From: an uncultured Microbacteriaceae bacterium
Lineage (GTDB): Bacteria; Actinomycetota; Actinomycetes; Actinomycetales; Microbacteriaceae
Reading direction: 5' to 3'
NCBI GenBank assembly: GCA_934661165.1
Contig: CAKUJB010000001.1
Location: 1,889 to 65,888 of the forward strand
DNA: 64,000 nucleotides
A model generated the notes under the pieces. The model saw nothing but the letters and a program-made list of their open reading frames with translations. It had not been told where the DNA came from and did no database searches. This document shows positions 1,313-17,652 of this stretch, piece by piece; position 1 is the stretch's first letter, and every line of letters starts with the position of its first letter. A program made the translations under genes and the position numbers.

Positions 1313-1331
1313 AGGGGAACTGACTTCCCCT
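1313..1331 (-). terminator. short stem-loop overlapping the stop codon of the last island gene
   Basis: AGGGGAA (1313-1319) pairs with TTCCCCT (1325-1331) around a 5-nt loop. On the minus strand a TTTT run follows about 12 nt downstream. Only 7 bp, so weak. Confidence 0.3.
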
Positions 1332-2466
1332 ATGAACTGCCCAGCGAGTCGCCCGCACCCGAGGACTTCTCTTGTTGATATTGCTCCAGCGGATCGAGAA
1401 GTTTGATGTCAGTGACTTCGGTGACGCCCTCTTCGACACTGAGCTTGATCATGACCCGGACCGCTGCCTCGTCCTGCGCATGGAAGTAGTGATCATTCCA
1501 GTCCTCAAGGAGTTCCACGCCAGAACCCTCATCCATGAACCAGTCGGACTTAGCGACGAAACCCTCGAAGTAGACCGTTGCTTCCGCGGTCGCGATTACT
1601 AGGTCACCGCTCGTAACAAGCTCAAACTCAGACTGCTGCTCGATATCGGAGATCGTGGCGTCCTCGAGTCCCGGAGCCGAGAACTGAACGAACTCGGGGT
1701 AGTCGTAGTCACCGCCGTACACCATTTGCAGCGACACGCTCTCTCCCACGAGAGAAAGGAGTGCATTCGTTGCTGCTGTCGCGAGGGCTGCCTCACGTTC
1801 CGCTTGCTCTGTTGCCGCCACAAGAGCGTCAACTTGTTGCTTCGCCGCCCAGACATTCTTCGCCAGCTGCACGGTTGCATGCTCGCCGGGTAGGCGGAGC
1901 ACATCTTCGACAAGATCCGGGTGGAAGCCCTTCCCGTCCTCGGCAAGGAAGCCAGTATCTGCAGTCACGAAAATCACCGTGTCCTCGGCGCGGCTGGCGG
2001 CTGCGCGGCTGAGCAGGCTCTCCCAGATCACGGCGTCGCGGAAGCCAGCCGATGCATGATCAGTACCGACCGCGTGAAACGGTCGGCGACGCTCAAGGTC
2101 GCGCGCCACGAGTCTCTCAAGCGCGATGCCTGGCACAGGAGCGAGCGCAACCCCGGGCCGACTGAGCAAGTCGTCAAAGTTTGCATCGATCTGCTCCGCG
2201 AGCCGGTCGAACGCCTCCCTTAGCTGACTCGCTGGCAGGTGCATCGACGCGCCCAGCCGTGCTGCGCGATCGACCACTGCATCCGCTTCTCCACGGGTTA
2301 CGAGTAGCTCCTCGCGCTGCTGACGTCGGAGTTCCTGAAGCACAACAACCGGATAGACCACTTCGCAGTGGCCTGCCGAGGCGAGGGTGAGCAGGGCTGG
2401 TCCGGCCCCGGACATCAGCCATAGATCGCGATGGACAGCATTGGAGTCGAGAACGACGACGATCAT
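1330..2466 (-). CDS. PIN-like (DUF4935-type) nuclease-domain protein with uncharacterised acidic C-terminal domain
   Basis: 378-aa ORF. The N-terminus MIVVVLDSNAV ... VVLQEL ... IFVTADTGF shows the D/E/D acidic pattern of PIN-like folds. The C-terminal ~150 aa is acidic with no motif I recognise. ATGA overlap (2463-2466) with the PP2C gene. Confidence 0.7.
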   Translation of the reverse strand: MIVVVLDSNAVHRDLWLMSGAGPALLTLASAGHCEVVYPVVVLQELRRQQREELLVTRGEADAVVDRAARLGASMHLPASQLREAFDRLAEQIDANFDDLLSRPGVALAPVPGIALERLVARDLERRRPFHAVGTDHASAGFRDAVIWESLLSRAAASRAEDTVIFVTADTGFLAEDGKGFHPDLVEDVLRLPGEHATVQLAKNVWAAKQQVDALVAATEQAEREAALATAATNALLSLVGESVSLQMVYGGDYDYPEFVQFSAPGLEDATISDIEQQSEFELVTSGDLVIATAEATVYFEGFVAKSDWFMDEGSGVELLEDWNDHYFHAQDEAAVRVMIKLSVEEGVTEVTDIKLLDPLEQYQQEKSSGAGDSLGSS

Positions 2467-3431
2467 GGTTGCGCCTCCCTCGGATTGGTACCTGCGGGTT
2501 CAGCGGGCTCATCATCGTTGCTCGTCGAGTCCTGTGCCAGGGCGATCAGGACGAGCGAGCAGTCGTCGTGGGTGCGGGGCACGATGACGTCGCGGAGGGT
2601 TTCGGCGAGTTGCTCGTGCATTGTCTCGGTGGGTAGATCGCGGCAGGCCTGCAGCAGCTTCGAGCAGGCACCAGCCATAGTGCGGGTGCTTCGTATGTAG
2701 AGGGAGGCCTCCGGACCGTCAGACATCATTACGAAGCCCGTCACCGCCCGGGAGGACGTCGTCACCCGGCCCCGGTAGACGCGAATCGAGCCAGCAGCAT
2801 CGCGGGAGGTGATGAACTTCGTTTCGTTGATGAACTCACCGTTGTCGGGGATGCCGAGTGCTCGGACGACCCGAGTTCCGCCCTTGAGGACGTGCTCCAC
2901 ACCGATGACACCGTCGCCGAGGTGCAGCGTGATGAAGCGGTCGCCGCGTACTGCCACCACGAGCAAAGTCGCGGCCAGATCACGGACATCGCACTTGATC
3001 AAGGGTTCAGCGCTGCGGTCGGGTAGGTCGAGCCGGGCTCGGTCGTCGGCGGAGACATCGAGCCCTTTGGCGGCACTCGTGACCAGGGCATTCAGTAGAT
3101 CGGTAGCCAAGCTCGCCCGCAATGTGCCCAGGTTGTTCGTCGCCCGGAACAGTTGATCGAACTGCTGAGCGACCAAGCGCGACGCAAGATCGGCCAGGAT
3201 CTCCGCGCCGTAGTGTGACAACTTCGCCGAGCCTGCGCCATCGGCGAGGGATCCCACCACGGTCCCATCGGAGTCCGCCAAGACCGCAACGTGGTCCTGA
3301 CACGGGACCGAGGCATCAGCGTGAGAGCGCCCCTGATGTCGTGCGGATGCGAAGCGCCACTCGATGGCGTCGAGCGCCTCCTCGCGTGAAGGAGGTTCCA
3401 GTTTGCTCCTCAGAACTTGAAGTCCGACCAT
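2463..3431 (-). CDS. PP2C-family Ser/Thr protein phosphatase (TerY-P triad component, YegK/PphC-like)
   Basis: 322-aa ORF with RHQGRSHADASVPCQD, LADGAGSAKLSHYGA, FVMMSDG and THDDCSLV, the bacterial PP2C_2-type metal-binding Asp motifs. The true ATG at 3431 overlaps the vWA gene end by 22 nt. Confidence 0.85.
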   Translation of the reverse strand: MVGLQVLRSKLEPPSREEALDAIEWRFASARHQGRSHADASVPCQDHVAVLADSDGTVVGSLADGAGSAKLSHYGAEILADLASRLVAQQFDQLFRATNNLGTLRASLATDLLNALVTSAAKGLDVSADDRARLDLPDRSAEPLIKCDVRDLAATLLVVAVRGDRFITLHLGDGVIGVEHVLKGGTRVVRALGIPDNGEFINETKFITSRDAAGSIRVYRGRVTTSSRAVTGFVMMSDGPEASLYIRSTRTMAGACSKLLQACRDLPTETMHEQLAETLRDVIVPRTHDDCSLVLIALAQDSTSNDDEPAEPAGTNPREAQP

Positions 3432-4093
3432 GACTTGATCCCGTCCACGTCGATCGGGACGCCGTCACCCGGCGTCGACTGCGAGACCCGAGACACCGAG
3501 GCGCTCAGCCACGAGAAGAAAGACTGGAAGTTGAGACCCTGAAGCTTGAACGCCGGGCGTGGAGCGCTGAAGCGGTTCAGGGTTGCCATGTCAGCACTAG
3601 CCCCGATGCCGATCGGGAACACGACGAGCTTCCGGTCTGCGGCAAGCTGCTGGACGCGGCCGACCTGTGCGTCTAGGACCGACGCGGAGCCGGTCGGCTG
3701 CCCATCGGTCATGAGCACGAGCCACGGCTGGTAGTAGTCGACACCGTTGTCCTTGTACGCCTGCTTCCGCTCGTCGAGCAGGTCGAGGGAGAGTTTCACC
3801 GCTTCCCCGAGCGGCGTGTCCCCGGTCGCACGCAGGACCGGCGGCCGCGACTGCGTCGCAACCGTTTGGAAGTCGGTCTCCTTCTGCACGGGGCCGAACG
3901 TGACGATGCTGATCTCGGCACTGTACTTCGCGATCTCGTCCTGGTTGATCGCCTGATAGAAGGAGGCGACGCCGGAGTTGAGCTCCTGGATGGGCGCGCC
4001 GCTCATCGAGCCGGATGCGTCGAGGCAGAGGCTGATTGCGACGCGGGAGGTTGGGTTGTCTACGAGGTCGTCGAGATCGATCAAGCTGGCCAT
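3410..4093 (-). CDS. von Willebrand factor A domain protein (TerY/YegL-like)
   Basis: 227-aa ORF with MIDAS motif LCLDASGSMSG (DxSxS), then GDTPLGEA and LVLMTDGQPT. GAAGGAA RBS lies 7 nt upstream of the ATG. Confidence 0.88.
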   Translation of the reverse strand: MASLIDLDDLVDNPTSRVAISLCLDASGSMSGAPIQELNSGVASFYQAINQDEIAKYSAEISIVTFGPVQKETDFQTVATQSRPPVLRATGDTPLGEAVKLSLDLLDERKQAYKDNGVDYYQPWLVLMTDGQPTGSASVLDAQVGRVQQLAADRKLVVFPIGIGASADMATLNRFSAPRPAFKLQGLNFQSFFSWLSASVSRVSQSTPGDGVPIDVDGIKSWSDFKF

Positions 4094-4123
4094 GGTTGGT
4101 TCCTTCTGTCGTGTTGGTCCGGT

Positions 4124-5686
4124 CTATCTACCCGCGGAGGCGATAGCAGAGATGATGAGGATCGCGATGAGGATCCCGAAGCCCCATCCGAAGATCGCGC
4201 CCCATGGCACGTTGCTCTTCGCGGGTTGCGGAGTGACCTTGGAGGCGGTCGACGACTTCGTAACCGATGGCGTCGTTTTCGCGAGAGAGGCGTGATGCCG
4301 GCAGTAGCCGCCACGCTCGTCGTGCATCCACTTGGCGGCCATGTAGCCGCACTGCTTGCAGCCGACCTGACGCCAGCAATCGTCGCAGTACTGAGCGCGG
4401 CCGCGGGTCGGTGTGAAGGTTTTGCCGCACACCGGGTTGTTACACTGAATGGCCTGCTTGAGAGACGAGCCGTAGCTCCGGCCGCCGCCCGTCGACGCGT
4501 AGCCACCGGCCCGCGCGGTGGCCCGAACTCGAGGTCGACGGACGTGAAGATCGCAGAAGATGTAGAGGTTCTCCTCAGCAGGGATGAACTTGTTCGTGCA
4601 CCCCTCGTACTTGCATTGCTTCATCTTCCGGCGCGTCGGGAAGATGTCCATGGCCATCGGGTCGTTCCTAAGCATGTTGTCGGCGCTGCTCAGGTAGCCG
4701 TTGAATAACTCTGCCCACTCGGTGGTCGAATACCTCCTCTGAGGTGTGAAGTGGGAGCCGCCCTTCTTGAAGGTCTCTGCGAAGGCCTCTCGGACTTTGT
4801 AGGTCATGTGGTTCCAGATGAAGCCCCACTTGCCAGGGGGAACCACGTCGTCTTTGCCCTCGTAGGCGAAGACGCCTGCCTTGATGTTCTCGGCGGGAGA
4901 GCCGCCGCCGACAGCCGAATAGGGTGGCTTGCCGGGCATCATGATCATGAAGAGCAGCGTCGCGATGGCGAAGTTCTCCATCTCCTGCGTCCGCAGGAAG
5001 GTCTTGAAGTCCTTGCCGCTCACTTCGGGCGGTGTGAAGTTCGCCGTGCCGACGGAGCACGGGTACCCCTCGATCTGGTAGCTGTCGCAGTCGACGAAGT
5101 ACACCTCTGTGGGCGATACCACGAGGATGTTCGCAGCATTGATGTCGCCAAGGATGACCCGGCGGTCGTTCAGGTAGCGGATCTTGTCGAGGATGGTGAG
5201 GCACAGCCTGATGGTGTCCTTCCGGGTCCACCTGGGGAACTTCGTCGGCAGGAGCATCGGCATGAAGACCGATTTGCTCAACTCGACGCCCTTCGCCTGC
5301 GGCATGAGGTACCCGATGAACTCGTTCGACGAGTTAAAGAGGATGGCCTCGGGGAAGCAGATGCCGGCATAGCGGATCGGCTTCGAGATCATGGTTCGCA
5401 GCTTGGCGAGGCGATCACTGGTTATCTTGTCCCGCTTGTAGATCTTCGCGACGTACCCGCTTGCGTTCGTGGTGAAGACCGCTCCTTCGCCACCCTCGGC
5501 GAGCTTCTCAGCGACGACGATCTGGCGCTGCATGGTCCCGTCGTCTGCGACGACAGTCGTGTTGACGCGCGCGCCCTTCGCCACCTGCTCGCCAGGTACT
5601 TCGCCTCGGACTGGCAATACTTTGCCCGGCGCGGCGATGCGTGCCACATGGGCGAAACGCGGGGCTTCTGGAACCGTCATCGTCAT
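4124..5686 (-). CDS. atypical Ser/Thr protein kinase (YegI-like) with Cys-rich Zn-ribbon region and C-terminal transmembrane anchor
   Basis: Kinase motifs: LAEGGEGAVF (Gly loop), YVAKIY (Lys), ILGDINAANILV (catalytic loop), FVDCDS (DFG equivalent), GTANFTPPE (APE-like). Three CxxC/CxxxxC-type clusters are followed by VPWGAIFGWGFGILIAILIISAIASAG. The start is set at ATG 5686 because of the ATGA overlap with the upstream stop; the ORF track start is 5716. Confidence 0.85.
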   Translation of the reverse strand: MTMTVPEAPRFAHVARIAAPGKVLPVRGEVPGEQVAKGARVNTTVVADDGTMQRQIVVAEKLAEGGEGAVFTTNASGYVAKIYKRDKITSDRLAKLRTMISKPIRYAGICFPEAILFNSSNEFIGYLMPQAKGVELSKSVFMPMLLPTKFPRWTRKDTIRLCLTILDKIRYLNDRRVILGDINAANILVVSPTEVYFVDCDSYQIEGYPCSVGTANFTPPEVSGKDFKTFLRTQEMENFAIATLLFMIMMPGKPPYSAVGGGSPAENIKAGVFAYEGKDDVVPPGKWGFIWNHMTYKVREAFAETFKKGGSHFTPQRRYSTTEWAELFNGYLSSADNMLRNDPMAMDIFPTRRKMKQCKYEGCTNKFIPAEENLYIFCDLHVRRPRVRATARAGGYASTGGGRSYGSSLKQAIQCNNPVCGKTFTPTRGRAQYCDDCWRQVGCKQCGYMAAKWMHDERGGYCRHHASLAKTTPSVTKSSTASKVTPQPAKSNVPWGAIFGWGFGILIAILIISAIASAGR

Positions 5687-6318
5687 GACTTGCGCAGCCC
5701 GACTCGCTCCCACCACGGCTCCGGCGTTGCCACGGGCGCTGCGGGCGCCACCCTCGAGCTAGCTGCTCTGGGCATGGACGTGCTCTTCGGGCCGTCGGTC
5801 CGAAGCAGATTTGAGAAAGCTTCCACCCGACCGCTTCCCGCTACGCGCGAGACGACCATGGTCTGACCCCTACGAGGGCGGACCGACTCGAACTCGACGA
5901 TGCGTTGGAGGTCCTTCGCGAGAGCTCGGTCCTGGGTGATGAAGTGGAGGTTCGCTTGCGTGCGGAACTTCAGGGCCACTGACAGGAGGACGGCATCGGC
6001 GAAGGGGTCGTTCGCGTCGCCGGCGACTTCGACCGTGCCGGTCTTGACGAGAGGGATCAGCTTCGCCAGCGTGTACTTTGCACGCTCGGCCAGGCCCTCC
6101 TTTTGAGTAGAACGAGAGTGCTTCACGAGTTCCTCGTGATTCCTCGCCGCGAGGATCAGTCGGCCGGTCCCCGAGAGGCGAGGTATCTCGTGTGACCAGA
6201 ACGTCGCTTCCTTTCCAGCGTCCAAGATGATCTGCTCACCCTTGCGATCGTCACCCTTCCAGCACGCTACGAGGAGGGCCGAGGTATCGAGGAAGATCAG
6301 CGTGCTCGTCCGCGTCAT
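5683..6318 (-). CDS. PIN-domain protein with disordered C-terminal tail
   Basis: 211-aa ORF with TLIFLDTSALL (first PIN Asp), DPFADAVLL and HFITQDRALAKDL (distal Asp), followed by a Ser/Pro/Ala-rich tail. ATGA overlaps at both ends (6315-6318 and 5683-5686). Confidence 0.65.
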   Translation of the reverse strand: MTRTSTLIFLDTSALLVACWKGDDRKGEQIILDAGKEATFWSHEIPRLSGTGRLILAARNHEELVKHSRSTQKEGLAERAKYTLAKLIPLVKTGTVEVAGDANDPFADAVLLSVALKFRTQANLHFITQDRALAKDLQRIVEFESVRPRRGQTMVVSRVAGSGRVEAFSNLLRTDGPKSTSMPRAASSRVAPAAPVATPEPWWERVGLRKS

Positions 6319-7130
6319 GCCACGTCCCCGCTCGATCCGTACCCGAGGATTTTGCTCCCGGTCGCGGACGCCGTCTCGGCCTCTCCCCAGGCCGCAATCT
6401 TGCTGGTCGGGGGTACGGTCGTCGTTCCGGGGGCAGCAGGGCTGACTGTGGCGGCCAGTACGGCTCCGACGAAGCCGAGCGCCTTCGACCGAGGCTGGGC
6501 CGGAGCACTCCCCGGAGACAGTGTCGACGCCTGAGTGTGCATCTGAAAGCGAAGCTTGGATATCCGACGCTGGGGTCGAGGAGCAGAAAGGTCCAGCAGG
6601 CGTCTGTGTATCCGTGCTGTGTTATTCACGATCTTGGAGGAGCTGCTCATCGCAGAGTTGCCCGTGCGAGCCTTAGACGCAGCTTGTTTCCGGACAACCG
6701 CATTGCCGATGTAGGTCGAGCGACTCAGGCCGTAGCCGTACAGCCTCTGGTTGCGTCCGGTGACGACACCTGCCGTCCAGCTCCGACTTGAGCCGCTCCC
6801 TGATCGGAACCTGCTGCCCATCCTGTTGACGACTTTGTTCCCGATGTCCTGGGCCCGGGACTTCGAGTAGCCCTTCGCCTGGTACTGACCGGCGATCTTG
6901 CCGGCCACGAACGACCGAGTGTTTGCCGAGTAGGAAGCGCCCGAGGTTCTTCCAACTGAGGTGCCGTGGCTCGAAGACGAGATCCGGCCGGACCCCCTCT
7001 TGCTCCGTCCCGAAGAACTCCCGCCGCTGTAGCTCGACCGCGACGAGTTCGAGCCGAACCTGCCCCGGCCGTAGCTAGATCTTCCGCCCCCATAGCTACG
7101 ACCGCCTCCCCCACCAGACCTGGCCATCAC
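6315..7130 (-). CDS. Ser/Gly/Arg-rich low-complexity protein (RSYG/RGG-like repeats), unknown function
   Basis: 271-aa ORF starting MMARSGGGGGRSYGGGRSSYGRGRFGSNSSRSSYSGGSSSGRSKRGSGR, with one hydrophobic stretch ALGFVGAVLAATV. GTG at 7130 or ATG at 7127, preceded by AGGGGG. The stop is coupled (ATGA) to the next gene. No homology-type motif, so the coding status rests on length, coupling and position. Confidence 0.55.
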   Translation of the reverse strand: MMARSGGGGGRSYGGGRSSYGRGRFGSNSSRSSYSGGSSSGRSKRGSGRISSSSHGTSVGRTSGASYSANTRSFVAGKIAGQYQAKGYSKSRAQDIGNKVVNRMGSRFRSGSGSSRSWTAGVVTGRNQRLYGYGLSRSTYIGNAVVRKQAASKARTGNSAMSSSSKIVNNTARIHRRLLDLSAPRPQRRISKLRFQMHTQASTLSPGSAPAQPRSKALGFVGAVLAATVSPAAPGTTTVPPTSKIAAWGEAETASATGSKILGYGSSGDVA

Positions 7131-7139
7131 ACCCCCTGA

Positions 7140-7322
7140 TCGAACGTGCTCTTCAGTCTATTGGTGGGCGTAGACATCGGAGCTTGCCGGGCGACCAGCG
7201 ACCTGTCGAGGATCACGCTCGAAGAGCTGCGGCACACGCACGCGACCCTGCTGCGGGCACTCCAGGAGCACCTCAAGGTGGTGGAGGAGCGCCTTGGTCA
7301 CCCAGTATCACCACCAAGATGA
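7140..7322 (+). pseudogene. tyrosine recombinase (phage-type integrase) C-terminal remnant
   Basis: Own translation of the stop-to-stop frame gives ...DLSRITLEELRHTHATLLRALQEHLKVVEERLGHPVSPPR*. The LRHTHAT and ERLGH boxes of tyrosine integrases are present. There is no start codon, no N-terminal or core domain, and the ORF ends before the catalytic Tyr. Confidence 0.7.
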
Positions 7323-7474
7323 ATATCTAGAGGTAGGTCGCACCGACAGTGCAGAAGCAGCCTGCCAGCTGCCTCGTCGCACTCGTCGCCAGCGGATAAA
7401 GTCCCGCGTCCGAGACCGAATCCGTCCATGAGCGGAGCGTTGCGCAAACCGACGAGCGCATGAAACCGAAATCG

Positions 7475-7508
7475 CTCCTGATCTAGGACCGAAATCCCAG
7501 ATCAGGAG
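7475..7508. repeat. 10-bp perfect inverted repeat next to attR
   Basis: CTCCTGATCT (7475-7484) and AGATCAGGAG (7499-7508) with a 14-nt loop, 7 nt from the attR core. It lies downstream of the tRNA 3' end on the minus strand. Confidence 0.6.
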
Positions 7509-7514
7509 CCATTC

Positions 7515-7543
7515 CACCACTGTGCGCGAGGGGGGACTTGAAC
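7515..7543. repeat. attR: 29-bp direct repeat overlapping the 3' end of tRNA-Leu
   Basis: Identical to 1127-1155. It covers the last 21 nt of the tRNA (7523-7543) plus 8 nt downstream. Confidence 0.9.
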
Positions 7544-7605
7544 CCCCACGCCCTTTCGGGCACTAGCACCTCAAGCTAGCGCGTCTGCCATTCCGCCACC
7601 CGCGC
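7523..7605 (-). tRNA. tRNA-Leu (anticodon GAG)
   Basis: Manual cloverleaf: acceptor GCGCGGG/CTCGCGC (one G-U), anticodon stem CTAGC/GCTAG with loop TTGAGGT, long variable arm TGCCCGAAAGGGCGT, T-arm GGGGG-TTCAAGT-CCCCC, discriminator A. CCA is not encoded. Confidence 0.9.
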
Positions 7606-7645: not shown

Positions 7646-8326
7646 CTACGCGGCGCTCGCCTGCGCCGTCACGAGGATCGGCGAATGATCGCTGCGACCC
7701 CGCCGGAGCGTCTGCACGTCGAGCACCTCGATGCCGCTCGCCGTGACGAAATCGAAGTGGCCCTTGACGATCTTCATAGCCTGGTACGTCCGCTTGTCGC
7801 TGAGCGTCAGGTCGATGCCGCTCCGGCCGAGACGCGCGCCGAGCCGGTTGTGGAACAGCGGGTAGTTGTAGTCGCCGACCATGAGCACGGGCGCTCCCCT
7901 GCCGAGCTGCGAGAGGCGATCGTGGGCGGTCTGGATCTGCAGCCGGCGCAGCGCCGAGCGCGCGGTCGGCGGTGCCGCGTGGAACGAGGCGATGACGAGC
8001 TCCCGGCGGGTGTCCCGCTCCCGCACATGCACGCCGACGAGCCGCTCCCGGGTGCGGTCGAAGACGGCGTCGTGGAGCGACTTTTTGAGCTCGAATGTCG
8101 CGCTCCGGAGCTGCTCGAACCGCTCGTCGCGCACATAGACGGCGAGGGCGAGCGTGTTGCGTCCGGTGTGCTCGGCGAGCCGCAGTCCGCCGATGCGCGC
8201 GGGCAGGCCGACCCGATACGCCTCCTGGACGCAAAGCGCGTCGAGGTCGGGCTCGTTCGCGACGAGCCCGGCGAGTTCCTCTTCGGCGCGGCTGTGGTAG
8301 AGGTTGTAGCTGATCACCCGGATCAC
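7646..8326 (-). CDS. endonuclease/exonuclease/phosphatase (EEP) family protein
   Basis: 226-aa ORF with MIRVISYNLYH..., LMVGDYNYP and RGRSDHSPILV, the EEP-fold catalytic motifs. Confidence 0.8.
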   Translation of the reverse strand: MIRVISYNLYHSRAEEELAGLVANEPDLDALCVQEAYRVGLPARIGGLRLAEHTGRNTLALAVYVRDERFEQLRSATFELKKSLHDAVFDRTRERLVGVHVRERDTRRELVIASFHAAPPTARSALRRLQIQTAHDRLSQLGRGAPVLMVGDYNYPLFHNRLGARLGRSGIDLTLSDKRTYQAMKIVKGHFDFVTASGIEVLDVQTLRRGRSDHSPILVTAQASAA

Positions 8327-12457: not shown

Positions 12458-13324
12458 ATGCTCGCAACGGAGGCGATCTACGCTGACGGCATGCGCACCG
12501 CGACCCTCGGCCCCGCGGCGGTGTCCACCGCGGCGGAGCTGCTGCGCGGACGGCGTGTCGCGGTGCTCACCGGGGCGGGCATCAGCACCGACTCCGGCAT
12601 CCCGGACTACCGTGGCCGCGGGGCCCCCGTGCGCACGCCGATGTCGTTCCAGCAGTTCCGCGGCGACCCCGATGCGCGGCGGCGCTATTGGGCCGGTTCG
12701 CACCTCGGCTGGCGACGCTTCCACGCCGCGACGCCGAACGAGGGGCACCTCGCGATCACCGACCTCGAGCGCGCCGGGCTCGTCGCCGGCGTCGTCACGC
12801 AGAACGTCGACGATCTCCACCTGCGCGCGGGGACCCGCCACGTCGTCGAGCTCCACGGCAGCATGCACACCGTCAGCTGCCTGCAGTGCGGGCAGACCTT
12901 CGCCCGGCAGGCGATCGCGGAGCGACTCGCGCGCCTGAATCCGTGGCTCGATGATCTCGTCCGGCGTGAGCTCGCCCCGGACGGCGACGTCGACATCGCG
13001 GAGTTCGGGGCGACGGTCGTCCCGGACTGCAGCATCTGCGGCGGGATGCTCAAGCCGGACGTCGTCTTCTTCGGCGAGTACGTGCCGCCGACGACCTTCG
13101 ATGCGGCAGCCGCGCTCGTCCGAGGCGCCGACGCGCTCCTCGTCGCCGGCTCGTCGCTCGTGGTCAACAGCGGCATCCGCATCGTGGAGCTCGCTCGCCG
13201 CCGCCGCGCGCCGATCGTCATCGTCAACCGCGGCGAGACCAAGGCCGACGACCGCGCCTCAGTGCGCCTCGAGGGCGGCACGACGGAGATCCTCACGGCG
13301 CTGCGCGATCAGCTGCTGCCCTGA
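12458..13324 (+). CDS. cobB: NAD-dependent protein deacylase, Sir2 family
   Basis: GAGISTDSGIPDYRG, TQNVDDLH, and Zn-binding CLQCG...CSICGG. The alternative start at 12491 cannot be excluded. Confidence 0.88.
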   Translation: MLATEAIYADGMRTATLGPAAVSTAAELLRGRRVAVLTGAGISTDSGIPDYRGRGAPVRTPMSFQQFRGDPDARRRYWAGSHLGWRRFHAATPNEGHLAITDLERAGLVAGVVTQNVDDLHLRAGTRHVVELHGSMHTVSCLQCGQTFARQAIAERLARLNPWLDDLVRRELAPDGDVDIAEFGATVVPDCSICGGMLKPDVVFFGEYVPPTTFDAAAALVRGADALLVAGSSLVVNSGIRIVELARRRRAPIVIVNRGETKADDRASVRLEGGTTEILTALRDQLLP

Positions 13325-14097
13325 GGCCCCCGCATCCGCCGGATCGTGCGCACCGTGAGCTGCGCGGCGACGATGAGTAGGAATGCGCCGAAGAGGATCG
13401 CGCCCGTCCGCGGGTCGATCCAGGTCGCCGCGTGCATGCCGAGCACGGCCACCCCGGCGCCGACGATGCCGATCGTGAGACCGGCGACGAGGTCGGCGTT
13501 GCGTCGCCGGAGATTGAGGATCGAGGTGGTCACCGCATTCGGCATGAGCGCGACGAGGGAGCCGCCCTTCGCGGCGAGGTCGCCGAATCCCGCGACGATG
13601 ATGAGCGCGGGCACGATGATGATCCCGCCGCCGACGCCGATCAGCCCGGAGAGCACGCCGGCCAGCAGGCCGAGCCCGAGCAGGAGCAGGAGGTCGAGCG
13701 GGCTGAGGAGCCGCGGCTCACCGCGGGTCGGCTCCTCGAGGAAGAGCTGCACGGCGACGACGAGCAGCGTCGCGATGAAGATCCACGAGATGATGGTCGA
13801 GGGCAGTCGGTGGAGCAGCGCGCTGCCGATGGCGCCGCCGACGACCGCGCCGATCGCGATGACGAGCGAGGCGGCCCAGTCGATGTGGCCGCCGGCGGCG
13901 TACGCGAGCATCCCGCCGACCGAGAGCGGTGCGACGGCGAGGAGCGAGGTGCCGGACGCGAGCTTCTGCGGCATGTGGAGCAGGAGCACGAGGCCGGGCA
14001 CGATGAGCACGCCGCCCCCGACGCCGAACAGTCCCGAGAGGAATCCGGCGACGGCGCCGATCCCGACGTAGGCGAGGAGACGCGGCAGGCTCGGCAC
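13309..14097 (-). CDS. sulfite exporter TauE/SafE family membrane protein
   Basis: 262 aa, about 8 hydrophobic segments, with repeated GxxxGxxGxGGG motifs (FLSGLFGVGGGVLIVP and LSGLIGVGGGIIIVP). Confidence 0.85.
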   Translation of the reverse strand: MPSLPRLLAYVGIGAVAGFLSGLFGVGGGVLIVPGLVLLLHMPQKLASGTSLLAVAPLSVGGMLAYAAGGHIDWAASLVIAIGAVVGGAIGSALLHRLPSTIISWIFIATLLVVAVQLFLEEPTRGEPRLLSPLDLLLLLGLGLLAGVLSGLIGVGGGIIIVPALIIVAGFGDLAAKGGSLVALMPNAVTTSILNLRRRNADLVAGLTIGIVGAGVAVLGMHAATWIDPRTGAILFGAFLLIVAAQLTVRTIRRMRGPQGSS

Positions 14098-14180
14098 CCC
14101 GCCACGCTACCGGTCCCGACGGCACGTCTCGCGCGCGGCGGCCGGAGTTCACCGGATCGCCGCACTAGGCTGGTCGGGCC

Positions 14181-15359
14181 ATGGCGCCACTCACGATCCT
14201 GCTCGGCTGCGACACCTTCACCCCGAACGTCAACGGGGCCGCACGATTCGCCGAGCGACTCGCCGCGGGCCTCGTCCAGCGCGGCCACGACGTGCACATC
14301 GTCGCGCCCTCGACGGGCTTCGGCAGGTCGGGCACATTCACGGAGGTGGTCGAGGGCCAGCCGATGACCGTCCACCGCTGGCCTAGTCTGCGCTGGCTCC
14401 CGCACGAGTGGGTGCGCTACACCTGGCCACAGGTCGCCGCCGTGCTCGCGGGACGCACGCTCGACCGGGTGAAGCCGGACGCCGTGCACGTCAACTCGCA
14501 CATCATGGGCGGCCGCTACCTCATCCATGCCGCGACGAAGCGCGGCATCCGGCTCGTCGCGACGAACCACGTCATGTCGGAGAACATCAGCGAGCACACG
14601 ACGCTGCCGCAGTTCCTCAACCGCGCATTCCTCAAGTGGGCCTGGTGGGACATCGACCGGCTGCTCGGGAAAGCTCGCTGGGTCACGACCCCGACGCGGC
14701 GCGCCGCCGACTACCTGGAGCAGAACACTTCGATCCGCGACGTGCTCGCGATCTCCTGCGGCATCGACGCCTCGCGGTACGAGCCGGACTTCACGCCGCG
14801 CGACGAGCACCGCCTGCTCTTCGTGGGCCGACTCGTCGAGGAGAAGCACGTCGAGGTGCTCATCCGCGCGCTCACACTGCTGCCGAAGGATCTCCCGGTC
14901 GCGCTCGACATCGCCGGATCCGGGGAGCACCGCCGCCATCTCGAGCAGTTCGCCGCGGATCTCGGGGTCGCCGATCGCGTCGTCTTCCACGGCGCGGTGA
15001 CCGACGAGGGGCTGCGGCGCCTCTACTCGAGGGCGAGCCTGTTCGCGATCGCCTCCATCGCGGAGCTGCAGTCGATCGCGACGCTCGAGGCGATGAGCTC
15101 CGGGCTGCCGATCGTCGCGGCGGACGCGATGGCGCTGCCGCACCTCGTCCAGGAGGGCGTCAACGGCTATCTCTTCACCCCCGACGACGCGCGGGCCGCC
15201 GCGGAGCGCATCGAGACGATCCTCCGGCTCCCGCACGAGGAGCGCGTCGCGATGCAGCAGGCCTCGGTCGACGGGGTCCGCATCCACTCGCTCGACCACA
15301 CGCTCGACGTCTTCGAGTCGCTGTATCGGGGCGAGCTCGACCGCGACGCGCGGGACTGA
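14181..15359 (+). CDS. glycosyltransferase family 4
   Basis: 392 aa with N-terminal NGAARF and a C-terminal GT-B motif LFAIASIAELQSIATLEAMSSGLPIVAAD. Confidence 0.85.
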   Translation: MAPLTILLGCDTFTPNVNGAARFAERLAAGLVQRGHDVHIVAPSTGFGRSGTFTEVVEGQPMTVHRWPSLRWLPHEWVRYTWPQVAAVLAGRTLDRVKPDAVHVNSHIMGGRYLIHAATKRGIRLVATNHVMSENISEHTTLPQFLNRAFLKWAWWDIDRLLGKARWVTTPTRRAADYLEQNTSIRDVLAISCGIDASRYEPDFTPRDEHRLLFVGRLVEEKHVEVLIRALTLLPKDLPVALDIAGSGEHRRHLEQFAADLGVADRVVFHGAVTDEGLRRLYSRASLFAIASIAELQSIATLEAMSSGLPIVAADAMALPHLVQEGVNGYLFTPDDARAAAERIETILRLPHEERVAMQQASVDGVRIHSLDHTLDVFESLYRGELDRDARD

Positions 15360-15364
15360 GCGGA

Positions 15365-16684
15365 CTACTCCGGACGTCGTCCGTCGCGTCGCGCCGCGAC
15401 GACATGGAGGAGGAATGCGAGGAGCTCGTCCGCCGCGGTCCCCCAGTCGTACCGCCGGGACCAGGACTCGCCGTGCTCCGAGCGCTTGAGCCAGAGGGAG
15501 TCGTCGGCGAGCCGGAGCACGGCCTGCGCGATGGCCTCGGGCGACTCCTGGTCGAAGAGCTCGGCGTGACCTCCGGTCACCTCCCGGAAGATGGGGATGT
15601 CCGAAACCGCCACTGGCGTGCCGAGTGCCATCGCCTCGACGACGGGCAGGCCGAAGCCCTCCTCGCGGGAGGCCGTCACGAGTGCGCGGGCGCTCGTGAG
15701 CGCGGCCTGATACTCGGCGTCCGAGGCGCCCTGCATGAAGTCGAGCGCGCCGTCGGGGGCGAGCGCCGTGAGTCGCGCGACGGTGGCCTCGTCGGCCCGG
15801 CTCAGCAGTCGCAGTCGCCACCCGGGCAGATGGTGCATCGCCGCGGCGAGCGCTTCGACGTTCTTGTACGGCATGAACGACCCGGCGTAGAGCAGGTCCC
15901 GACCCCGCGGCGGCCGGCGTCGGGGGGTGAGCGCGGGGTGGTCCGTGCCGTTCGCGATGACCCGGAGCGGCCGGGGCGCCATCCGCCGATCGAGCATGAG
16001 GGCCTTCGTCGTCTCGCTGATCGTGACCTGGGCGTCGGCGAGGGCGAGGACCCAGCGCTGGAAGACGGGCGTGAGGTGATACGCGCGCCAGAGGGCACGC
16101 ACCGCCCAGGGCAGATCTGCCGGCGGCTTCGGGTGCGAGTAGTAGATGAGGTCGTGCACCGTCGTCACGAGGGCGTAGCGGCGCCCGATCGGGCCGATCG
16201 TCTGCATGGGGCTGTAGACGATGTCGGGCGCGAGGCGGTTGAGCGCGAGGGGGCCGATGATCGGCTCGAGCGGGCTCGTCGGGCTCGGGCCGAGTGTCCA
16301 GGGCAGCTCCGGGAGCATCGCGAGCTGGCGGACGTCGTGCACGAGCATGACGACCGGGTGGCGCCTGCCGAGCTCCTCGACGAGACGCGAGGTGAATCGG
16401 CTGATGCCGTCGTGGCGCTCGAGCCGCGTGTAGCGGCAGTCGACGAGGATGCGCACGGCGCCCGCCGCCCAGGCGACCCCGGCTGGTGGCGCGGTGCTCG
16501 TCTCGCCGGGGATGATCGCGAGCGCCTTCGTCGACTCGCCGGTGTCGGCGAGCCCGAGCGCCCGGACGAGATCGTGCTCGCCGGTCGCCTCTGGGGGCGT
16601 CGCCGACTCGGCCGACTCAGCCGCGGCGGCCTCGTCCGCCGCATCGTCGGCAGCCCCGAGCGACCAGGGCTCCCCCGGCTGCAT
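15365..16684 (-). CDS. glycosyltransferase (GT1/GT4 type)
   Basis: C-terminal 439 codons of ORF 15365..17683, starting at ATG 16684 (MQPGEPW...). Contains LVTASREEGFGLPVVEAMALGTPV. The upstream part of the long ORF overlaps the hydrolase gene in another frame. Confidence 0.8.
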   Translation of the reverse strand: MQPGEPWSLGAADDAADEAAAAESAESATPPEATGEHDLVRALGLADTGESTKALAIIPGETSTAPPAGVAWAAGAVRILVDCRYTRLERHDGISRFTSRLVEELGRRHPVVMLVHDVRQLAMLPELPWTLGPSPTSPLEPIIGPLALNRLAPDIVYSPMQTIGPIGRRYALVTTVHDLIYYSHPKPPADLPWAVRALWRAYHLTPVFQRWVLALADAQVTISETTKALMLDRRMAPRPLRVIANGTDHPALTPRRRPPRGRDLLYAGSFMPYKNVEALAAAMHHLPGWRLRLLSRADEATVARLTALAPDGALDFMQGASDAEYQAALTSARALVTASREEGFGLPVVEAMALGTPVAVSDIPIFREVTGGHAELFDQESPEAIAQAVLRLADDSLWLKRSEHGESWSRRYDWGTAADELLAFLLHVVAARRDGRRPE

Positions 16685-16692
16685 GGGATCGC

Positions 16693-17568
16693 TCACGCCG
16701 GCACCCGCTCGCCGAGGAAGTCGCGGATCGCCGCGGCGGCGTCCGCGGGACGCTCGTAGTGGATGAGATGGCCGACGTCCTCGAGGACGACGAGCTCGCC
16801 GGCCGGCAGGAGGTCGCGCAGCGCTTCGACGTCGCGCGTCGGCGTGATCTGGTCCTGCGCCGCCCCGATGAGGAGCGTGGGCATCGTGAGCGCGGCAGCG
16901 TGCGGCGTGACGAAGTCGCTCAGCGACGCGTCGAACCCCTCCACGACGACCCGGCGCGTCCGGAAGCCCGAGAAGTAGCGGCGATGCTCCTCCTTGATCC
17001 ACCGGCGCAGCCGCCGGTCGGAGGTCGTCGTGGTGAGCAGGCTCATGCCGTCCGTCACGAGTCGCGAGCGCAGCAGACGCTCCCCCATGCGCCGCGGGAG
17101 GGCGGCGCCGACACGGTAGAGCGCCTTGACGAGCAGGCCGCCGATCGCCTGCGACCCGGCGAGCGGTGCGGACGCGATCGGATTGATGAGCACGACGCGG
17201 TCCGGTGCGAGGCCGCGATCGATCGCGGCGGCCGTGACGATGGTGCCGAAGCTGTGGCCGATGACGACGAACGGGCGTGCTCGGGTCGCGGTCGCCGAGG
17301 CGAAGTCGATGAGCCAGTCCGCATACGCGGTGATCGTGTGCGGGCCGGGCAGCGGGCTCGAGCCGCCATAGCCCGGCAGATCCGGGGCGAGAATGCGGTG
17401 TTCCGGGAGCAGGTCGATGACGCGCTGCAGCCCGTGATGGTCGCCGCGGAAGCCGTGGACGACGACGACGGTGCCCGGCGCGGCCGTGTCTGCGGTCGGT
17501 GACGTCTCCCACCATCGCGTGCGAGCGCCCGCGATCGTCGCCTCGCGCTGCGCCGTCCGGTCCGTCAC
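16693..17568 (-). CDS. alpha/beta hydrolase
   Basis: VVVVHGFRGDHH and VIGHSFGT (GxSxG nucleophile elbow), ...LEDVGHLIHYERP. The start is uncertain: GTG at 17568 was chosen because longer versions would overlap the divergent exonuclease gene. Confidence 0.8.
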   Translation of the reverse strand: MTDRTAQREATIAGARTRWWETSPTADTAAPGTVVVVHGFRGDHHGLQRVIDLLPEHRILAPDLPGYGGSSPLPGPHTITAYADWLIDFASATATRARPFVVIGHSFGTIVTAAAIDRGLAPDRVVLINPIASAPLAGSQAIGGLLVKALYRVGAALPRRMGERLLRSRLVTDGMSLLTTTTSDRRLRRWIKEEHRRYFSGFRTRRVVVEGFDASLSDFVTPHAAALTMPTLLIGAAQDQITPTRDVEALRDLLPAGELVVLEDVGHLIHYERPADAAAAIRDFLGERVPA

Positions 17569-17652
17569 GGTGACCGAGTCTAAGACCCGGATCCTGAGCC
17601 TCCTCCGAGTCGTGCGCGGATCGATGTCGGAGGTCGCCGGTAGGCTCGCGCC

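Follow-up and report, generated by a model that had tools for sequence, protein, structure and literature searches.

The stretch of DNA studied here, 64,000 nucleotides of contig CAKUJB010000001.1 from an uncultured Microbacteriaceae bacterium (hereafter the window), contains six minus-strand open reading frames (ORFs) lying head to tail at 1330-7130: ORF1, ORF2, a kinase gene, a vWA gene, a PP2C gene and ORF6. The question raised by this locus is whether the six genes constitute one system or whether a smaller conserved unit is embedded in them, and what such a unit could do. In an earlier reading of the letters alone (the sequence-only reading) all six were taken as one architecture, in which a TerY-P-type triad of a vWA protein, a PP2C phosphatase and a Ser/Thr kinase was joined to two PIN-fold proteins and a Ser-rich protein. 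The region proved to be a decayed, tRNA-Leu-integrated island which carries a five-gene cassette, ORF1-PIN-kinase-vWA-PP2C, together with an unrelated and recently joined PIN_12 gene, ORF6. The cassette belongs to a broad clade of the TerY-P type in which the PIN protein is an obligate fourth component.

Results

Conservation of the PIN-kinase unit across genomes

The wider scan covered one genome per species and resulted in 190 relatives of the window kinase by tblastn, and the 80 best of these loci were examined by means of hidden Markov models (HMMs) built from the window proteins. An ORF2-type PIN was detected in 80 of 80 loci; as these are the best tblastn matches to the window kinase, the figure defines a clade and not all TerY-P triads. 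In 67 loci the PIN was fused to the N-terminus of the kinase, and in 13 it had a gene of its own directly upstream. One or more vWA genes were present in 78 loci (two in 16 of them) and PP2C in 76. The full set of PIN, kinase, vWA and PP2C was found in 75 loci, and three of the five exceptions stop at a contig edge. The 80 loci were distributed over Actinomycetota, Bacillota, Campylobacterota, Spirochaetota, Desulfovibrio/Mailhella, Gammaproteobacteria and Saccharibacteria, the split form of the PIN occurring in Actinomycetota, including Coriobacteriia, and in one Campylobacter species. In most phyla the PIN is part of the kinase chain, and in Actinomycetota its gene is split off and translationally coupled to the kinase, as in the window.

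The close relatives of the window cassette repeated the order ORF1-like, ORF2-like, kinase, vWA and PP2C, and the next gene after PP2C was an integrase or an insertion sequence (IS) element, never ORF6. The conserved unit is the PIN together with the kinase-Zn-ribbon protein, the vWA protein and PP2C, not the six genes. The proposed six-gene order was thus borne out by the neighbourhoods for the ORF2-type PIN beside the triad, in a few loci only for ORF1, and in none of the 80 for ORF6. The obligate linkage, in most cases a fusion, which ties an ORF2-type PIN to this clade of kinases across phyla was absent from the sequence-only reading, and it makes a much stronger case for the PIN as the effector than local gene order does. 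The pattern of fusion and fission across the loci indicates that the PIN and the kinase work in one complex. Since E. coli YegI has no PIN, the PIN-linked set makes up one clade of the TerY-P class, not all of it.

The surroundings of the cassette were determined for selected loci. In L001-L006 it was accompanied by integrase, IS and relaxase genes, and one of these elements contained a TrwC relaxase, a transposase and an integrase. Prophage ends, holin/lysin lysis genes and serine recombinases were found around L011-L013. L101 is located on a conjugative Paenarthrobacter plasmid, where the fused protein is named 'PIN domain-containing protein' by PGAP, and the cassette was detected also on a Lysinibacillus plasmid. 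Defence-type genes adjoined the cassette in L024 (GmrSD, 4857-7094), in L007 (a 1002-aa HerA/mad8-like ATPase, 13149-16840) and in L011 (a fusion of an Eco57I-like methyltransferase and an SNF2 helicase, 14108-17650).

Assignment of ORF2 to the PIN fold

ORF2, the predicted effector (211 aa, 5683-6318, minus strand), is a PIN-like nuclease domain protein composed of the PIN-like domain at residues 5-170, a linker that is disordered and a WW tail at the C-terminus. Searches of Pfam, NCBIfam, PADLOC and PHROGs gave no match to ORF2, and the search of PDB sequences with its profile resulted only in a designed-repeat match which was judged spurious. With the longer kinase relatives' N-terminal domain, the ORF2 family profile was aligned by hhalign at a probability of 99.7 and an E value of 1.6e-25. 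In one of these relatives, the 672-aa P0120, the domain homologous to ORF2 scored 23.7 bits with PIN_4 against the cutoff of 21.9, and the link of ORF2 to a curated PIN model is transitive only, through this domain. Residues E63, D101, D104, D108 and D130 were invariant in the family of 39 homologues, and D11 was kept in at least 90%. The top PDB matches of the AlphaFold2 model (pLDDT 82) in Foldseek were mostly PIN or related 5' flap nucleases, namely TTHA0540 (3ix7), SMG6, EST1A and the T5 flap nuclease, with marginal scores (E ~2e-3, TM-score 0.4-0.6). On the grounds of profile comparison, motifs and predicted fold, ORF2 is assigned to the PIN-fold proteins. The presence of two PIN-fold proteins in the locus, as proposed earlier, was confirmed directly for ORF6 by PIN_12 and by indirect proof only for ORF2.

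The active-site residues E63, D104, D108 and D130 were retained in both the free and the kinase-fused PINs, and in the fused forms the acidic metal-binding residues were conserved in 58-65 of 68. The WW tail (5683-5730 of the window in ORF2), which follows the disordered linker, was present in 12 of 12 actinobacterial split PINs, that of the window included, and in 0 of 68 fused ones. This distribution suggests that the WW tail is a docking motif in place of the covalent link between the PIN and the kinase. No VapB-type antitoxin gene lies next to ORF2 or ORF6, the upstream genes being the 270-aa ORF1 and PP2C, respectively, and no match to the VapB, AbrB, RHH or Phd families was found in the Pfam/NCBIfam scans.

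The kinase, vWA and PP2C proteins

The stand-alone vWA protein (227 aa, 3410-4093, minus strand) is TerY/YegL-like. It scored 37.3 bits with Pfam PF00092 (cutoff 23.8), shared 44% identity with YegL of E. coli along 215 residues, i.e. over the full length (E 2e-51), and matched phrog_28389 of PHROGs with an E value of 3e-52. A D-x-S-x-S start of the metal ion-dependent adhesion site (MIDAS) type, LDASGSMSG, can be seen in the translation. The PP2C-family Ser/Thr phosphatase (322 aa, 2463-3431, minus strand) scored 135 bits with PF13672 (PP2C_2), above the cutoff, and was 27% identical to E. coli PphC (E 1e-14). The motifs DGAGS, GDG, SDG and DD are present in its translation and, as judged by eye only, would be catalytic.

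The third component is an atypical Ser/Thr kinase (520 aa, 4124-5686, minus strand) with 28% identity to E. coli YegI (E 5e-24). The kinase itself reached 21.6 bits with Pfam Pkinase and remained under the cutoff of 31.7, but many of its 627 homologues exceed the cutoff of this model (PF00069) and carry the zinc-binding PF13451. The core is located at residues ~55-350, followed by a Cys-rich Zn-ribbon region at ~358-460 and a predicted C-terminal transmembrane helix at ~495-517. In the alignment K81 (YVAKIY), D181 and N186 (GDINxxNILV), D199, D201 and E221 were invariant, as were Cys358, Cys363, Cys434 and Cys437. The last ~25 residues are strongly hydrophobic (tail hydropathy 2.48), and such a predicted helix was found in 10 of the 13 split kinases. 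The fused kinases end in tails which look amphipathic, as judged by eye and not by hydropathy, and the fused kinase of the plasmid example ends in a domain named CFI-box-CTERM by PGAP. YegI has been described as an integral membrane kinase without canonical kinase residues (10.1101/819920).

All three TerY-P components are present in the window: a stand-alone vWA protein with a MIDAS motif, a PP2C in the same operon and a kinase with a C-terminal Zn ribbon. By homology the three proteins are a TerY-P-type triad, relatives of YegL, PphC and YegI of E. coli, and the identities of 44, 27 and 28%, respectively, corroborate the triad of the sequence-only reading. Its domain assignments were supported by HMM scores above the cutoffs for vWA, PP2C and the ORF6 PIN; the kinase below the Pkinase cutoff and ORF2 without a match were not supported in this way. 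In the sequence searches of the PDB no match was found for vWA and PP2C, and a generic match to EGFR was all that the kinase profile yielded.

Gene coupling in the operon

The coupling of the six same-strand ORFs was confirmed. The start and stop codons overlap in ATGA at three junctions, ORF1/ORF2 (6315-6318), ORF2/kinase (5683-5686) and PP2C/ORF6 (2463-2466). A stretch of 22 nt (3410-3431) is shared by the vWA and PP2C genes, provided that the PP2C ATG at 3431 is used; this start, and hence the overlap, is the least certain junction, and in L005 and L006 the start is placed later by gene callers. The sole intergenic spacer, 30 nt at 4094-4123 on the minus strand, contains a GAAGGAA Shine-Dalgarno sequence for the vWA gene, as read in the sequence. 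For the kinase the start codon is the ATG at 5686 within ATGA, and the resulting 520 aa agree with a 90%-identical relative and with metagenome gene calls, although the mechanical ORF list extends the frame to a GTG at 5716. The start of ORF1 is most likely the ATG at 7127, which is preceded by GGGGG and gives the 270-aa form of the metagenome gene calls. No internal terminator of note was found within the six-gene block.

ORF1 and the upstream partners

ORF1 (270 aa, 6315-7127 with an upper limit of 7130, minus strand) is a candidate adaptor or substrate. It consists of a Ser/Gly/Arg-rich N-terminus, a conserved core at residues ~60-150 (NTRSFVAGKIAGQYQAKGYSK…AGVVTGRNQ.LYGYGLSRST) and a C-terminus with three SK-x-x-G/A-aromatic motifs, SKALGF, SKIAAW and SKILGY (6318-6500 of the window). 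The orthologues were 38-75% identical and shared a non-repetitive core of ~90 residues, with 70+ invariant alignment positions. As judged from this alignment, ORF1 is a genuine gene, and the conserved core contradicts the earlier view of the protein as simply a disordered Ser-rich substrate. The family is very narrow: 12 cluster representatives were found among 1.84 billion (1.84e9) proteins. Among the loci, ORF1 was found only in L001-L006, L014/L015 and L021, a handful of actinobacterial loci, and is absent from most of the clade. No match to ORF1 was obtained in Pfam, NCBIfam, PADLOC or PHROGs.

Longer orthologues of ORF1 at L005 (7993-9375) and L006 (8101-9366) are extended by an acidic stretch and, at the C-terminus, by a helical domain (…IDALIEFVR…). 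The ending SPNLxxLIEFV, as in the longer orthologues, also closes the short coriobacterial upstream partners. This recurrence implies a modular build of ORF1-type proteins and a truncation of the copy in the window.

The genes directly upstream of the PIN or the PIN-kinase encode mostly unrelated products with a common short motif, Φ-x-G-W (L021-L030, L038-L078). The motif was present in 23 of 55 upstream partners versus 76 of 1225 background ORFs (6%). In the coriobacterial partners it occurs N-terminally as KI[VAI]GW, and in the helix-turn-helix (HTH)-PIN-like partners at the extreme C-terminus as [LF]xGW[ED]x[IL][DE] (e.g. …KGWESID). The three SK-x-x-G/A-aromatic copies of ORF1 are related to it. 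The position of ORF1 is occupied in Demequina (L022, 4814-7366) and in an actinomycete metagenome-assembled genome (L031, 4811-7375) by a protein of ~850 aa with no Pfam match; it ends in SKIAGW in the former and in the variant SKITRF in the latter. For these proteins, membership in the GAP1-N2 GTPase group was considered and ruled out, as they have no Pfam match and there is no GTPase in the window.

Many of the fused-type loci contain a second upstream gene of ~320 aa with HTH_3 and a PIN-like domain (L011, 7008-7979; L038, 4892-5860; ~20 similar ones). In these partners E63 and D108 have been lost, and D130 is replaced by N in 7 of 19. By its residues the HTH-PIN-like partner resembles a PIN paralogue that has lost catalysis, and it is possibly a regulator or an inhibitory partner.

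ORF6 and the six-gene alternative

ORF6 (378 aa, 1330-2466, minus strand) encodes a VapC-like PIN_12 (DUF4935) protein. It scored 64.4 bits with PF16289 (gathering score 32), residues 4-173 covering positions 1-172 of the 172 of the model, and PF16289 was present in all 34 homologues. In the AlphaFold2 model (pLDDT 88) a VapC-like PIN is followed first by a long helix and then by a C-terminal domain rich in beta structure, and VapC was the closest fold in Foldseek (TM-score 0.65). The C-terminal extension of ~200 residues is weakly NTF2/cystatin-like (NTF2-like E 3e-3). A DUF488-family gene was observed to adjoin ORF6 in the identical contig L014.

One alternative to a five-gene cassette is that the six genes are one integrated system, in which the triad controls two PIN effectors, ORF2 and ORF6, and ORF1 serves as a phospho-substrate or a scaffold. 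Such a system would be in agreement with the common direction of all genes, the ATGA at PP2C/ORF6 without a notable terminator inside the block, the retained acidic residues of the ORF6 PIN and the same arrangement in two independent metagenome contigs. However, ORF6 was found with the triad in this genotype only, that is in the window and in the two identical metagenome contigs, and in 0 of the 80 genome loci and 0 of L001-L006. Homologues of ORF6 occur in other islands alone, without the triad, beside NACHT, SIR2_2, AbiJ-like and PIN genes. Moreover, the nucleotide identity of ~93% to the related cassette L002 stops exactly at the PP2C stop/ORF6 ATG, which indicates that this ATGA is a recent recombination joint and not an old coupling. 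ORF1, for its part, is missing from most loci of the clade. Due to the evidence on ORF6, the single six-gene system is disfavoured and considered unlikely, and the claim of one architecture was not upheld: its ORF6 part holds only for this strain and the identical metagenome copies, and its ORF1 part for few actinobacterial loci. As read from the homology break, ORF6 is a recent add-on and not part of the conserved cassette. It probably acts independently as a stand-alone sensor-nuclease that is co-transcribed by accident of insertion.

The tRNA-Leu island

All six genes are held in a 6.4-kb low-GC island which is bounded by a tRNA-Leu gene and a 29-nt copy of the tRNA 3' end. The tRNA-Leu gene (anticodon GAG, 7522-7605, minus strand; ARAGORN, Rfam tRNA 53 bits) is the presumed integration target. 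In the repeat search an attachment (att)-type direct repeat with a 29-nt identical core, CACCACTGTGCGCGAGGGGGGACTTGAAC, was found at the tRNA 3' end (7515-7543), covering 22 nt of the tRNA and 7 nt beyond it. The distal copy at 1127-1155 marks the far edge of the island, and the GC content beyond it climbs from ~0.63 to 0.71-0.75. The GC content was 59-66% within the island versus 68-77% outside, a drop of ~8-12 points. The tRNA-Leu gene, the exact repeat and the deviant GC confirmed the tRNA island of the sequence-only reading.

No intact integrase was found in the island. The sole trace is a 58-codon fragment from the ORF list (…LRHTHATLL…ERLGH…; 7146-7322, plus strand), a putative C-terminal remnant of a tyrosine integrase, which matched positions 121-156 of the 172 of the Pfam Phage_integrase profile with a weak, sub-cutoff score of 16 bits (E 0.011). 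The island has probably lost its integrase and is hence immobile; in the related cassettes L001-L003 the integrase is intact. An exact-pattern scan of metagenome contigs revealed no empty att site. Directly 3' of the tRNA-Leu, the sequence at 7474-7509 (minus strand) contains a perfect hairpin of 16 bp with a T-rich run behind it. It is probably the tRNA-Leu terminator and overlaps the att repeat region. The chromosomal flanks contain ordinary-looking ORFs at 622-1053 and 7646-8326 (both minus strand), which have no link to the cassette.

Discussion

Proposed function of the cassette and its alternatives

We infer, at a probability of roughly 0.55, that the cassette functions as a conflict system directed at phage or mobile elements, its mechanism being the gating of the PIN nuclease by phosphorylation, and that ORF6 is a passenger independent of it. 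The PIN is likely the effector controlled by the phosphorylation switch. The support for this proposal comes from the PIN linkage, the homology to the fused forms, the intact PIN and kinase residues, the ATGA coupling, the mobile and defence contexts and the predicted membrane association. The membrane-anchored kinase and the PIN protein would form one complex, and in the split forms the WW tail of the PIN may take the place of the covalent link. In the resting state PP2C would hold the complex dephosphorylated and the nuclease silent. A cue derived from infection or stress could be sensed at the MIDAS site of the vWA protein, by the Φ-x-G-W partner encoded upstream (ORF1) or by both, and would shift the balance towards the kinase. 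Phosphorylation would then license the PIN to cut RNA, possibly DNA, which would result in cell arrest or in destruction of the invader nucleic acid, and PP2C would reset the switch.

Several results weigh against the proposed conflict system. The E. coli triad yegI-pphC-yegL has no PIN, so a triad can work without one, and the universal PIN linkage applies to a clade picked by similarity to the window kinase. ORF2 fails every curated PIN model, and the Foldseek scores of its predicted structure were marginal. Among IMG/VR viral contigs there were no relatives of the cassette, and only two weak partial matches were found in GenBank phages. In PADLOC-DB v2 the vWA protein had no match, and PP2C and the kinase had only weak matches to other models, not to TerY-P; this says little, as YegL and PphC of E. 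coli likewise have none and the class may be outside the coverage of this library. The PIN as phospho-target, the vWA protein as sensor and RNA or DNA as substrate are all three putative.

An addiction or stabilisation module of the mobile element was considered as well, in which, similarly to toxin-antitoxin (TA) pairs, a PIN toxin would be neutralised by the kinase/phosphatase or by the upstream partner. The PIN is the classic domain of VapC toxins, ORF6 is closest to VapC in its fold, the cassette is found on islands, plasmids and prophage ends, and the upstream partners of the fused type, with an HTH and an inactivated PIN paralogue, are antitoxin- or repressor-like. Nevertheless, four or five components are far more elaborate than the known TA pairs, the window lacks a gene for a small, labile antitoxin, and every gene of the cassette is intact in an island without integrase. 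The module is thus regarded as improbable, and it overlaps abortive-infection defence instead of excluding it. The least probable role, that of a housekeeping or stress module (tellurite, metal, envelope) like the ter-linked TerY and YegI/PphC/YegL, with the PIN in RNA processing, has in its favour the clear homology with the triad on the E. coli chromosome, the predicted membrane anchor of the kinase and the first definition of TerY-P around tellurite resistance and metal sensing (as given in passages of PMC11090510, citing Anantharaman 2012), but is opposed by the patchy, island-borne distribution with atypical GC, by neighbours which are restriction/defence-like and mobile-element genes and by the lack of ter genes in the ORF list of the first 10 kb of the window.

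Beyond the conflict system proposed for this cassette, a wider generalisation is put forward only tentatively. The PIN-linked TerY-P loci could represent a distinct, phylum-spanning conflict family, in which the effector of TerY-P would be a phosphorylation-gated PIN on the kinase, the assembly would proceed by short linear Trp motifs (the WW tail and Φ-x-G-W) and the dead HTH-PIN paralogues may be inhibitory pseudo-nuclease subunits.

The main interest of the locus is in the universal PIN linkage of the kinase clade, more than in a six-gene layout that is specific to the strain. Triads of the TerY-P type are widespread, an anti-phage action has been reported for one version of them, and the accounts given in the parts of PMC7699616 and PMC11090510 consulted name neither an effector nor a mechanism. 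A PIN with an intact active site which is always attached to the kinase is a concrete, mutable effector candidate for the TerY-P class, and the natural pair of split and fused forms provides a handle on how a nuclease of bacterial immunity could be put under the control of Ser/Thr phosphorylation. The ORF6 junction, which is precise, coupled and recent, demonstrates that tight gene coupling need not mean an ancient functional linkage.

Comparison with known systems

The authors of the founding 2012 paper on TerY-P (Anantharaman, Iyer and Aravind) catalogue domain fusions thoroughly. A description of the PIN-linked TerY-P clade was found neither in PADLOC nor in the literature searched, where only PMC7159879 was pertinent to the combination of PIN, kinase, vWA and PP2C, which is in accordance with the sequence-only reading of an undescribed arrangement; the founding paper was outside this search, and a prior mention there is possible.

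In the passages of PMC11090510 that cite Anantharaman 2012, the TerY-P class is defined by a vWA protein, a PP2C and a Ser/Thr kinase with a Zn ribbon, and its triads have been proposed as switches for linked nucleic-acid-processing modules (Anantharaman 2012, via passages of PMC4978471 and PMC11090510). The window cassette resembles yegI-pphC(yegK)-yegL of E. coli in the vWA protein, PP2C and the atypical kinase, and has a Zn-ribbon kinase region and a single operon. In E. coli YegI is without a PIN, whereas here and in all 80 close relatives the PIN is fused to the kinase or precedes it. The gene order also differs: it is kinase-vWA-PP2C in the window, while in E. coli yegJ, on the other strand, lies between yegI and pphC-yegL.

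The TerY-P-like triad of Gao et al. 2020 was reported to be protective against T7-like phages, with no effector identified in the accounts given in parts of PMC7699616 and PMC11090510. It has the same three enzyme classes as the window cassette. The Gao 2020 kinase has a C-terminal OB-fold, according to the corresponding passages of PMC11090510, whereas the window kinase has Zn ribbons, a predicted transmembrane helix and a PIN partner. No OB or S1 domain was matched in the C-terminus of the window kinase by the domain scans, which indicates that the cassette is not the Gao 2020 version.

Membership in MADS, prompted by matches to mad6, mad8 and mad2, was ruled out, as these were due to a generic kinase domain or to neighbours of other loci. 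MADS comprises a methyltransferase and a specificity subunit plus mad6-8 (10.1101/2023.03.30.534895), and in the window only an 11-bit mad6 match of the kinase was obtained, with no methyltransferase or HerA-like gene in the island. From the stand-alone VapC/PIN_12 proteins, to which ORF6 is related by its PIN_12 match and its superposition on VapC and ORF2 by its PIN fold and acidic residues, the two proteins are distinguished by the coupling of ORF2 to the kinase, by the 200-residue C-terminal extension of ORF6 and by the lack of a VapB-type gene at either.

An active kinase fused to a Zn ribbon or transmembrane helices, beside PP2C and a stand-alone vWA protein, also occurs in actinobacterial GAP1-N2 systems, as presented in passages of Kaur et al. 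2020 (PMC7159879). GTPase, GAP1 and FNIII genes are none in the island, and a PIN gene is not mentioned in those passages. In the type II/III-A CoCoNuT systems, which are related to McrBC, the triads with a Ser/Thr kinase-Zn-ribbon protein are in one operon with HEPN nucleases predicted to target RNA, according to the relevant parts of PMC11090510. The window cassette has none of the McrB/McrC, CnuH and HEPN genes, but shares with CoCoNuT the attachment of a phospho-switch to a predicted RNase, the nuclease being here a PIN that is fused or adjacent to the kinase.

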